Below, one piece after another: positions 36,965 through 52,177 of a DNA stretch of 64,000 nucleotides; position 1 is the first letter of the stretch; the number at the start of each line of letters is the position of its first letter. This DNA is from a phage. The position numbers and the translations under genes were made by a program. The notes beneath the pieces were generated by a model. That model was given only the letters and a program-made list of their open reading frames with translations, was not told the origin of the DNA and searched no databases. The stretch lies in sequence record PZ357121.2. One strand, 5' to 3'.

Positions 36965-37150
36965 TTATTCGGTAATTCGTTCTAAATAATCATCCAATGC
37001 TTTTTGAGCATCTTCCAATTCTTGTGTTGCAAGTTGTTTTGCCAGTTTAGACGAGAAATACGATGAATGTTCCCATTCATAAGCTTGTTCTGCTAACCGT
37101 ATTTCATTAGACAAATAAATTATTTCTTCTTTCTGTTGGCGAGTAATCAT
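36965..37150 (-). CDS. hypothetical protein
   Basis: 61 aa ORF. Confidence 0.5.
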   Translation of the reverse strand: MITRQQKEEIIYLSNEIRLAEQAYEWEHSSYFSSKLAKQLATQELEDAQKALDDYLERITE

Positions 37151-37329: not shown

Positions 37330-37553
37330 TTAGGTTCGCCTTCTTTAACGAAATCTGGATAAGGGCAAAATCCTGAGTAAAACCCTTCACCTTTATGATT
37401 GTTACAACCCTTGTTCGAGCAATAGCACCAATAATCAAAATCACAAGCCATTTCGTCATTGCATAGAGCAAATACTACAGGCCATTCGCACTTTTCGCAT
37501 TTAGCGCCTAGAAGAATTTTTGTTTGACTCATAACCACGTCACCTGCATGCAA
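37326..37553 (-). CDS. Cys-rich small protein (putative metal-binding)
   Basis: 75 aa with 10 Cys (CEKCEW...CNDEMACDFDYWCYCSNKGCNNH...FCPYP). Confidence 0.55.
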   Translation of the reverse strand: MHAGDVVMSQTKILLGAKCEKCEWPVVFALCNDEMACDFDYWCYCSNKGCNNHKGEGFYSGFCPYPDFVKEGEPK

Positions 37554-37741
37554 TATTCTTCGACATGCTTTTTACGACCTTTCTTATCGATAAAGGTGTA
37601 TTCCATAAAGCGGCCATGATAACGACGTTCAACATCATGTGGGGTATTAATAGGACACTTAGTCTGGCGAATTTCTTCCCATTCACGAATAATGACTGCT
37701 TTATTCTTCGGGTCATACGGGTGAGGATAATGTACATTCAT
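37529..37741 (-). CDS. hypothetical protein
   Basis: 70 aa from ATG 37741 (ATGA overlap with the macro-domain gene stop). Confidence 0.45.
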   Translation of the reverse strand: MNVHYPHPYDPKNKAVIIREWEEIRQTKCPINTPHDVERRYHGRFMEYTFIDKKGRKKHVEEYCMQVTWL

Positions 37742-38235
37742 AACAATGGTTCCCAATCAACAATCACAATTTCTAGTTTAGTGGAATACGTATCAAGAAT
37801 TTCTTCAATGATATCCCAGTTTCCACCACCTATACCTGCACCAATTCTCGGCATATAAATCACAGGCTTTGTTATTTTATTCTTTCCGAATTCATTTAAT
37901 TCTATTATACAATTCATTAAAGCATAGTACTCGAAATTAGGTCCCGGCTCAAACTGTGTATAAAGATTAAAGCAATAAGCTTTATGGGTCTTAAAATATT
38001 TTTCATAAACCGAATAAGTCCCGAGTTTAGTCTCATCACCGAATTCGGTTTGAAGTTTATCTGCTTCTAAAATTTTTGGATAAGCCTTTGCTAATTGTCC
38101 TGCTACACCGGAACCCATTGTATGAAAACAATTACACCCATGAGCAATATTATTACCTTTAGAAAACAGGGCGACAATATCGCCCTTGATATAGTTTTTA
38201 ATCACTTGCTGCAAGTCCTCTATTATAAGAGTCAA
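37738..38235 (-). CDS. macro-domain protein (ADP-ribose binding/hydrolase fold)
   Basis: 165 aa; KGDIVALFSKGNNIAHGCNCFHTMGSGVAGQLAKAYP and C-terminal IYMPRIGAGIGGGNW resemble macro-domain motifs. Confidence 0.6.
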   Translation of the reverse strand: MTLIIEDLQQVIKNYIKGDIVALFSKGNNIAHGCNCFHTMGSGVAGQLAKAYPKILEADKLQTEFGDETKLGTYSVYEKYFKTHKAYCFNLYTQFEPGPNFEYYALMNCIIELNEFGKNKITKPVIYMPRIGAGIGGGNWDIIEEILDTYSTKLEIVIVDWEPLL

Positions 38236-38545
38236 CTAGACGGTCCACCATAGAATTGCATGCTGCCTTATCTTTAGGTTCCGCCACCGAGCATTCTAAT
38301 ATTTGCCATTTTTTATAGTATCTTTTAATTAAGGTAGACGCCTTGAACCTACTAGACGCCCCATCTTTTTCTCCGTCTTTATACGCATATAACAATTTTT
38401 GTGAAAAATCTACTTTACACTCTTGACTTTTACCACAATAATCAGACGCCGTTCTGTTTGTATACTCCGTTACATCAGTATATGTAGTATTAGCAAGAGC
38501 GCTAAATGAAACCAAGCCAACTATTAAAGCCAACATTTTGGTCAT
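38198..38545 (-). CDS. secreted Cys-containing protein
   Basis: 115 aa; signal peptide MTKMLALIVGLVSFSALA. Confidence 0.55.
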   Translation of the reverse strand: MTKMLALIVGLVSFSALANTTYTDVTEYTNRTASDYCGKSQECKVDFSQKLLYAYKDGEKDGASSRFKASTLIKRYYKKWQILECSVAEPKDKAACNSMVDRLVDSYNRGLAASD

Positions 38546-51205: not shown

Positions 51206-51284
51206 ATTTTCCTCACTTAAAGTTGGTGCCTCTAGAAAGATTTGAACTCTCACCATTAACCTTAGAACGATTATATGCTATCCA

Positions 51285-51956
51285 TTACACTATAGAGGCA
51301 ATTAAATTATTTACAATATCTTCTTTATAAACTTCAGCATAATGAAGTTCATATATTTCCCATCCTAATGATTTTATAATATCATGGCGTTCTTTATAAT
51401 AAGGGGCCAAAATCTTTTTCTTAGGATTGGAGTAATGTTGGTTTCCATTAACTTCAATAATAATCTTTTTATCTATTAAAGCAATATCCGTGCAATACGC
51501 TCGGTTTTTAACCGGTTGGTATTCTTCAATAAATGAAATTCCGTTTTCTATTAATTTAGATTTCAAAAATTCACAAGGCACAGATTTAAATTTTGTATTT
51601 TTCTTCCAAGGATGTTTATCAGGGTTTTCATTCAACCATTTTTTCCGAGCATTAGATATTTTTATTCTAGATTCCTCAGAGTGTTCTCTACCTAATGAAG
51701 CGGCTGACAATTTTTGTCTAGTCTCTTCCGAAATTACTACAGGGACACCAGTCTTTTTAGATACAACATACTGGTTTAAATTACCTGAAGCTATACGTGC
51801 TTTATTCATTGCTGCAATGGCTGATTTAGAACTTTCTTTATACAATTCCAATTTAGGGTTGGATTTACACCATCTAGTGTGGTTAGCCATCCATCCTTTA
51901 GGTTTATTAGAAATATCAAATTCCATATTACAATGTTTACAAATGCTCATTACCAA
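51285..51956 (-). CDS. homing-endonuclease-like protein with N-terminal zinc finger, NUMOD3 and C-terminal Vsr/DUF559-like nuclease domain
   Basis: 223 aa; CKHCNMEF..HTRWCK finger, LGREHSEESRIKIS (NUMOD3-like), C-terminal IIIEVNGNQHY...RHDIIKSLGWEIYEL; in tRNA region where T4 has segB. Confidence 0.7.
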   Translation of the reverse strand: MVMSICKHCNMEFDISNKPKGWMANHTRWCKSNPKLELYKESSKSAIAAMNKARIASGNLNQYVVSKKTGVPVVISEETRQKLSAASLGREHSEESRIKISNARKKWLNENPDKHPWKKNTKFKSVPCEFLKSKLIENGISFIEEYQPVKNRAYCTDIALIDKKIIIEVNGNQHYSNPKKKILAPYYKERHDIIKSLGWEIYELHYAEVYKEDIVNNLIASIV

Positions 51957-51960
51957 TTAT

Positions 51961-51979
51961 CTCCTATAAAATATAGGAG
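51961..51979 (-). promoter_or_regulatory. perfect hairpin sequestering the SD of gene 51285..51956
   Basis: CTCCTATA-AAA-TATAGGAG; on the minus strand the proximal arm TATAGGAG is the RBS 5 nt before ATG 51956. Confidence 0.45.
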
Positions 51980-52024
51980 TATTTATTATTTGGATAGAGC
52001 ACTTAATTTACTTCGTTTAAATTA

Positions 52025-52096
52025 CTGGCGCACTTGGACTCGAACCAAGATAAAGGAGTTAACAGCTCCCCGTAATAACCTTTATACGATGCACCA
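52025..52096 (-). tRNA. tRNA-Asn (anticodon GUU), CCA not encoded
   Basis: Manual cloverleaf: acceptor UGGUGCA/UGCGCCA, anticodon stem GGGAG/CUCCU with loop CUGUUAA, T-arm CUUGG-UUCGAGU-CCAAG, discriminator G; U1-A72 as in E. coli tRNA-Asn. Confidence 0.75.
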
Positions 52097-52102
52097 TTTG
52101 TT

Positions 52103-52177
52103 TGGTGACCCTGGCTGGTTTCGATCCAGCTACCTATCAGTTATGAGCTGACAGCTCTCCCATTGAGCTACAGGGCC
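52103..52177 (-). tRNA. tRNA with CAU anticodon (Met or AUA-decoding Ile2-like), CCA encoded
   Basis: Manual cloverleaf: acceptor GGCCCUG/CAGGGUC, D-stem GCUC/GAGC, anticodon loop CUCAUAA, T-stem GCUGG/CCAGC, 3' ACCA; resembles E. coli tRNA-Ile2. Confidence 0.75.

Follow-up and report, generated by a model that had tools for sequence, protein, structure and literature searches.

Phage T4, a small group of macrodomain enzymes and the chimallivirus PhiKZ provide the closest described relatives of the gene analyzed here. In RefSeq, Tk.4 of T4 is annotated as 'phosphatase; contains A1pp phosphatase motif', and, according to a survey of viral NAD/ADP-ribose functions, 41% of myoviruses have macro domains (PMC9503650). 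Even with adfA and adfN both absent, T4 remained resistant to DarTG2, which suggested the existence of a further factor (PMC11825919). According to a 2025 preprint, a T4 transposon library propagated on a DarTG2 host gave tk.4 as its single significant match, and T4 with a clean tk.4 deletion was sensitised to DarTG2; the gene was named adfM (anti-DarT factor, macrodomain) and its product was proposed to remove ADP-ribose enzymatically from DNA (bioRxiv 10.1101/2025.11.20.689424). The name AdfM has been given independently to two macrodomain lineages, T4 Tk.4 in this preprint and PhiKZ gp104 (PMC13309987), and the PhiKZ protein strips thymidine-ADP-ribose from oligonucleotides in vitro (PMC13309987).

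SCO6735 of Streptomyces coelicolor likewise clears thymidine-linked ADP-ribose from DNA and has a protective effect on cells exposed to DarT. Structural superposition identified its Gln85 as the equivalent of K84 of TARG1 and K80 of DarG. The Q85A and Q85E variants are inactive, N27S, which removes the Asn holding this Gln, is nearly inactive, and G128E is impaired. Two features specific to SCO6735 have been tied to its activity on DNA, a Val/Ile at residue 25 and a mobile loop that is extended and carries Lys residues (all PMC9411070).

The window, a 64,000-nucleotide stretch of phage DNA (record PZ357121.2), contains on its minus strand an open reading frame ending at 37738, identified from the ORF list and the sequence. 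Its most upstream start, a TTG at 38235, would give a protein of 165 aa and lies 38 nt inside the upstream neighbour vs (valyl-tRNA synthetase modifier; 38198..38545, minus strand). A GTG is found at 38205, exactly where T4 and T6 have an ATG, and a (C/A)GAGGA Shine-Dalgarno sequence, conserved in position, lies some 10 nt ahead of the start in both of these phages; in the window, GAGGA is read at 38216..38220 (minus strand), inside the 3' end of vs and 10 nt before the GTG. The stretch of T4 and T6 equivalent to the 10-codon extension (38206..38235, minus strand) contains in-frame stop codons, and the GenBank records of T6 and of PNJ-6, a phage 98% identical to the window, give a CDS of 468 nt (155 aa). 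Because of the ATG and the upstream stops in T4 and T6, the Shine-Dalgarno sequence and the 468-nt annotations, the gene is most likely 37738..38205 (minus strand, GTG start, TAA stop included) and would encode a single-domain macrodomain protein of 155 aa. The TTG start was rejected, the extension being unconserved and interrupted by stops in T4 and T6; these 10 codons are probably untranslated in the macrodomain protein, and the length of 165 aa (37738-38235) given in the original prediction is probably 10 codons too long.

The macrodomain ORF is a genuine and strongly constrained protein-coding gene. Comparisons with T4, T6 and PNJ-6 gave dN/dS values of 0.07-0.08, denoting strong purifying selection, with a dS of about 1.15 relative to T4. 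The window protein and T4 Tk.4 (NP_049723, 155 aa) are 86% identical over 155/155 residues without gaps; both genes lie between vs and tk.3, and every residue invariant in the family is shared by the two proteins. Judged by sequence and gene order, the gene is an ortholog of T4 tk.4. The two nevertheless differ by 22 substitutions, by the start codon (GTG in the window, ATG in T4) and by the overlap with vs, which is of 8 nt in the window (AGTGATTAA, the last 8 nt of vs) and of 4 nt in T4. At residue 127 (37826-37822 region), in the second glycine loop, T4 has a Lys (IGAGIGKGNW) and the window protein a Gly (IGAGIGGGNW). This Gly is found in more than 90% of the family, T4 being the outlier, so that T4 results may transfer imperfectly in the second glycine loop.

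Over the surrounding 2.2 kb, identity is 94-96% with many T4-like phages of Escherichia, among them ATK47, a20 and PNJ-6; PNJ-6 is classified as a Mosigvirus. The gene order, regB, vs.1, vs, tk.4, tk.3, tk.2, tk.1, tk, is as in T4, and the regB-vs.1-vs-tk.4-tk.3...tk arrangement is identical in T4, T6 and PNJ-6; the 'early accessory region' in which the gene had been placed from the letters fits, on this synteny, the T4 tk-vs-regB block. The ATG of the downstream tk.3 homolog (37529..37741, minus strand) overlaps the stop codon of the gene by 4 nt (ATGA). Seven genes in all are chained by start/stop overlaps of 4 or 8 nt between 36965 and 39084 on the minus strand, namely vs.1, vs, the macrodomain gene and the four small ORFs preceding tk, an organization that implies a putative single, translationally coupled unit. 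Scanning for the sigma-70 consensus around the gene returned no more sites than in shuffled sequence (in fact fewer). In the preprint that named adfM, vs was the strongest match for T4 growth in minimal medium (bioRxiv 10.1101/2025.11.20.689424).

From the macrodomain gene to tk, the window has four small ORFs in between, against three in T4 and PNJ-6. A 61-aa ORF lies at 36965-37150 (minus strand), between the tk.1 homolog and tk, in a stretch that among the best DNA matches was covered only by ATK47/ATK48, the others aligning from about 37154. Elsewhere in the window, three tRNA genes (Arg-TCT, Asn-GTT and Met-CAT) were found by both ARAGORN and Rfam at 51224-52177 on the minus strand; the tRNA set of T4 is larger and comprises eight.

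Homologs of the protein were present in 2,796 of 50,697 phage records searched by tblastn, in phages of Escherichia, Klebsiella, Salmonella, Pseudomonas, Vibrio, Acinetobacter, Aeromonas and Bacillus. Among 1.84 billion cluster representatives, a search with the profile recovered 1,244 sequences at E <= 1e-30 and, with the looser limit of E <= 1e-10, 9,058. Three distant homologs located on contigs (two from bacterial MAGs, one from a metagenome) were inspected and none lay beside DarT; at least one of the three was in a T4-like phage context.

A macro domain had been recognised in the original prediction from three motifs, GDI, MGSGVAG (as GxGV) and IGAGIGGGNW. All three are present in the ORF, and two of them correspond to the two glycine-rich ligand-binding loops. 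The assignment itself holds well: the Pfam Macro family PF01661 matched with 28.9 bits against a gathering score of 22, over profile positions 2-117 of 118, and an AlphaFold2 model built on the homolog alignment (mean pLDDT 95, pTM 0.90) has the three-layer alpha/beta/alpha macro fold. PHROG 335 ('phosphatase') matched at 4.5e-66, and numerous GenBank entries for close relatives are labelled 'macro domain protein', 'ADP-ribose binding module' or 'Appr-1-p processing protein'. A sequence search of the PDB returned BT1257, yeast Poa1p, SCO6735 (5e3b), DarG macrodomains and TARG1, and these matches improved to E values of 5e-18 to 2e-11 with a 58-sequence profile. The protein was closer to the ALC1-like class (TARG1/DarG/SCO6735/BT1257) than to the MacroD-, viral-, macroH2A- or PARG-type classes. 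On the Pfam, PHROG, PDB-search and AlphaFold2 results, it is thus assigned to the TARG1/DarG/SCO6735 ('ALC1-like') branch and kept apart from the MacroD and viral-nsp3 branches. The two glycine-rich ADP-ribose/phosphate-binding loops, MGSGVAG and PRIGAGIGGG, align with those of TARG1 and BT1257 and are invariant or nearly so, and from them the protein is predicted to bind ADP-ribose as macrodomains do.

Poa1p (6lfq), the yeast ADP-ribose-1''-phosphate phosphatase, was an equally good structural match, and the N-terminal half of the phage protein shows no less resemblance to it than to DarG, so that another ADP-ribose substrate is possible. The phage protein might then hydrolyse small-molecule derivatives of ADP-ribose, as a Poa1p-like ADP-ribose-1''-phosphate phosphatase or an O-acetyl-ADP-ribose deacetylase clearing by-products of RNA repair or of sirtuins; a Poa1p-like activity is also the basis of the old 'phosphatase' annotation in T4. 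We consider such a role unlikely. Poa1p, a small-molecule phosphatase, has a Ser at the position of Gln84, which is invariant in the phage family. RNA repair in T4, performed by Pnk and Rnl1, yields ordinary 3'-5' junctions without a 2'-phosphate, and ADP-ribose-1''-phosphate is therefore not expected to arise from it. Moreover, many macrodomains have a weak phosphatase activity in vitro although their biological role is a different one. For the T4 ortholog, sensitivity to DarTG2 is the one phenotype known.

The active-site residues were then located in the alignments. The H22-G-C-N25-C motif (38128..38142, minus strand) is invariant in the 58-homolog alignment; H22 corresponds to H24 of SCO6735, and N25 occupies the position of the conserved active-site Asn (N27 in SCO6735, N22 in DarG, N23 in PhiKZ AdfM) according to hhalign, MAFFT and the published residue assignments (PMC9411070, PMC13309987). 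Loop 1, MGSGVAG (residues 30-36; 38098..38118, minus strand), is the glycine-rich ADP-ribose-binding loop following strand 2; its G33 and A35 are invariant and it aligns to MGAGIA of TARG1. In N80-L-Y-T-Q84 (37954..37968, minus strand), Q84 is found at the position of the catalytic Lys (K84 in TARG1, K80 in DarG), which is that of the essential Gln85 of SCO6735. Loop 2, PRIGAGIGGGNW (residues 119-130; 37816..37851, minus strand), is the phosphate-binding loop, with P119, I121, G122 and G124 invariant in the 58-homolog alignment, and was aligned to PRIGCGLDRLQW of TARG1 and PRIGCGLAGGTW of 5e3b; G124 corresponds to G128 of SCO6735.

hhalign against TARG1 (probability 98.2%, with a TARG1 sequence confirmed to be identical to PDB 2lgr) placed T83-Q84 on T83-K84, G126 on the catalytic D125, N25 on S35 (an Asn in DarG and SCO6735) and G124 on the conserved loop Gly, and MAFFT placed the phage N80...Q84 on the N...Q of BT1257. 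The Lys-Gln equivalence rests on this TARG1 alignment combined with the structural equivalence of K80 and K84 (PMC9411070), the DarG position being reached through TARG1 and not by direct alignment; when the C-terminal 100 residues were searched against the PDB with HMMER, DarG was not among the matches. N25, N80, Q84 and G124 are invariant in the 58 database homologs, down to 36% identity, and in 79-80 viral loci from IMG/VR (80/80 for N25, 79/79 for Q84), Q84 and N80 lying outside the search patterns that retrieved these loci. The protein thus combines a Gln at the catalytic-Lys position (Q84), the conserved Asn (N25) and the loop Gly (G124), as in SCO6735. From these alignments we infer, modestly, a Gln-type as opposed to a Lys-type active site, as a difference in residues and not as a demonstrated mechanism. 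This distinction was not found in the accessible portion of the preprint (bioRxiv 10.1101/2025.11.20.689424).

In our view the protein, the ortholog of T4 tk.4/adfM, is quite probably a free-standing ALC1-like macrodomain which removes thymidine-linked ADP-ribose and counters DarTG2. In the proposed mechanism, the host DarTG2 system would release the DarT2 toxin, which would ADP-ribosylate thymidines in single-stranded phage DNA and block replication. AdfM would bind the ADP-ribose with its two glycine loops and hydrolyse the thymine-N3-ribose bond, freeing ADP-ribose and restoring the DNA, and would in this way be an orphan antitoxin carried by the phage. Q84 would replace the catalytic Lys in the manner of SCO6735, where an Asn-held Gln positions the distal ribose, and catalysis would proceed through an ordered water. 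The anti-DarTG2 phenotype is that of T4, is genetic and comes from the preprint, and nothing in the window indicates that this particular phage encounters DarTG2; that the window protein itself hydrolyses thymidine-linked ADP-ribose is what we would expect by analogy. Against a DNA hydrolase stand the missing catalytic Lys of DarG and TARG1 and the missing Asp of TARG1, as well as the missing Val/Ile25 and the missing extension of the Lys-rich mobile loop of SCO6735. The original prediction had suggested the reversal of a host ADP-ribosylation-based defence, which matches the genetics of the T4 ortholog, and had advised plating a deletion mutant on hosts expressing DarTG; as reported in the preprint, this experiment has already been done in T4, where the deletion sensitised the phage. 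With both the function and the proposed plating already realised for the ortholog, this reading was in essence right and is not new.

The position of the catalytic Lys also bears on whether hydrolysis is needed at all, as no obvious acid-base residue is found there. Protection against DarTG2 could be mainly non-catalytic, with the protein binding or inhibiting DarT2 or shielding ADP-ribosylated sites, and inhibition of DarT in vitro is indeed retained by the dead variants SCO6735 Q85A, DarG K80A and TARG1 K84A, the SCO6735 variant being the strongest inhibitor (PMC9411070). This is decidedly unlikely to be the main activity of a 155-aa protein which, compared with the 338-position DarG model, has no DarG-type C-terminal DarT-binding domain. 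Furthermore, invariance across distant phages is seen at the active site (N25, Q84 and the glycine loops), a pattern that fits an enzyme acting on a universal substrate and not a binder of divergent toxins.

If the protein is an enzyme, the marks that it removes could be carried by protein or RNA, either those left by the phage's own Alt, ModA and ModB or those of other host transferases, for example on uracil in RNA. T-even phages do encode three ADP-ribosyltransferases. Alt, ModA and ModB, however, modify arginine, and we know of no cleavage of the arginine linkage by TARG1/DarG-class macrodomains. TARG1 and SCO6735 act in addition on Glu/Asp-linked protein ADP-ribose (PMC9411070), and another report links TARG1-class enzymes to uracil-linked RNA marks (PMC13036486). 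On the other hand, no such phenotype was reported for the T4 screen (bioRxiv 10.1101/2025.11.20.689424), and T-even phages stay sensitive to the mRNA ADP-ribosyltransferase CmdT despite carrying tk.4 (PMC11618068). We therefore regard protein or RNA as a highly improbable main target, and a control of the phage's own ADP-ribosyltransferases, which had also been put forward at the outset, found no support. Equally without support was the idea that the protein acts against Thoeris: that it would destroy or sequester ADP-ribose-derived immune signals is barely credible, since its closest relatives are all glycohydrolases of macromolecule-linked ADP-ribose and searches of the literature gave nothing in its favour.

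In addition to its coding constraint, the 5' end of the gene contains an 8-bp GC-rich hairpin (AGGGCGAT-ATT-GTCGCCCT) with a T-rich tract, at 38168..38186 (minus strand), covering codons 7-13 (KGDIVAL) within the first 40 nt of the ORF and with a stability of about -13 kcal/mol. In 11 distinct sequences of T4-like phages, down to 53% protein identity, 88/88 cells of the stem are paired. One G-C pair is changed into A-U by synonymous changes on both sides (AAG/CTN to AAA/TTR), and one further pair goes from U-G to C-G. Four-fold codons that keep their residue in all of these sequences number 24, and the third base is fixed in just three of them, namely the stem codons for Gly, Val and Ala, while the codon of the loop varies freely; the chance of this coincidence is about 1 in 2,000 by simple combinatorics applied to sequences that are phylogenetically related. 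Phages whose peptide reads KGDIVKL or KGNIVEL lack the hairpin. An Rfam scan returned the three tRNAs only, and no family matching the hairpin. Taken together, these results suggest that the hairpin is under selection at synonymous sites as an RNA or DNA structure. It might serve as a terminator or attenuator placed between vs and tk.4, or influence coupled re-initiation at the start codon located about 17 nt upstream.

Removal of thymidine-linked ADP-ribose can be combined with these observations into a broader reading, which we offer tentatively and rate slightly below an even chance: T4-type AdfM would be a Gln-type (SCO6735/BT1257-like), lysine-independent enzyme acting through water and not a miniature DarG, anti-DarT2 macrodomains would have been recruited at least twice and from different branches, the range of substrates might be wider and expression may be tuned by the hairpin. 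If this is true, Lys-type macrodomains were recruited in chimalliviruses and Gln-type macrodomains in T4-like phages, and the Gln type might also accept protein Glu/Asp- or uracil-linked ADP-ribose. The additions to published work are modest, namely the Gln-based active site of the T4-type AdfM family and the possible intragenic regulatory hairpin. The Gln site would matter for mechanism, for inhibitor design and for the use of one name, AdfM, for two unrelated lineages. In practice, the window phage appears to carry the standard T-even counter-measure against DarTG2, which helps annotation and host-range prediction, for example when therapy phages are chosen for DarTG2-positive strains.

Compared with the known systems, the protein would work like the macrodomain of DarG (T. 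aquaticus 5m31/5m3e, M. tuberculosis 5m3i) and yet is not a DarG. The PADLOC and NCBIfam DarG models both matched over their N-terminal macro part, and the DarG equivalog NF048014 gave 29.7 bits against a cut-off of 250, at model positions 4-146 of 338 only. The catalytic Lys80 of DarG is a Gln in the phage protein, its C-terminal DarT-binding domain has no counterpart in a single macro domain of 155 aa, and no darT lies beside the gene, whose neighbours are vs and tk.3; it is on these grounds that we separate the two. The catalytic pair of human TARG1/OARD1 (4j5q-4j5s), K84/D125, is replaced by Q84/G126, both catalytic residues being therefore absent. Identity to SCO6735 (PDB 5e3b) and Bacteroides BT1257 (2afc/2fg1) is only about 25-30%. 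In a comparison made with BT1257 and the numbering of PMC9411070, the phage 'mobile loop' is about 6 residues shorter than that of BT1257 and does not contain the Lys residues to which a part in DNA binding is ascribed; an invariant Gly (G23) stands where SCO6735 has its Val/Ile at position 25. Because of this Gly and of the shorter loop, the phage protein is not, by alignment, a strict ortholog of SCO6735, which is moreover chromosomal and SOS-regulated, while the window protein is phage-borne and not SOS-regulated. PhiKZ gp104, the chimallivirus AdfM, is similarly a phage-encoded single macrodomain that counters DarTG2, and its N23 aligns with N25. It nevertheless belongs to another lineage, with about 19% identity and an hhalign E of 1.5e-9, and is a protein of the Lys type like DarG (N23, K78) that is imported into the phage nucleus (PMC13309987); hhalign and MAFFT placed its K78 one residue off Q84, in an ambiguous register that is given no weight here. 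The gene of the window is a feature already known, the ordinary tk.4 (adfM) gene of a T4-like phage.
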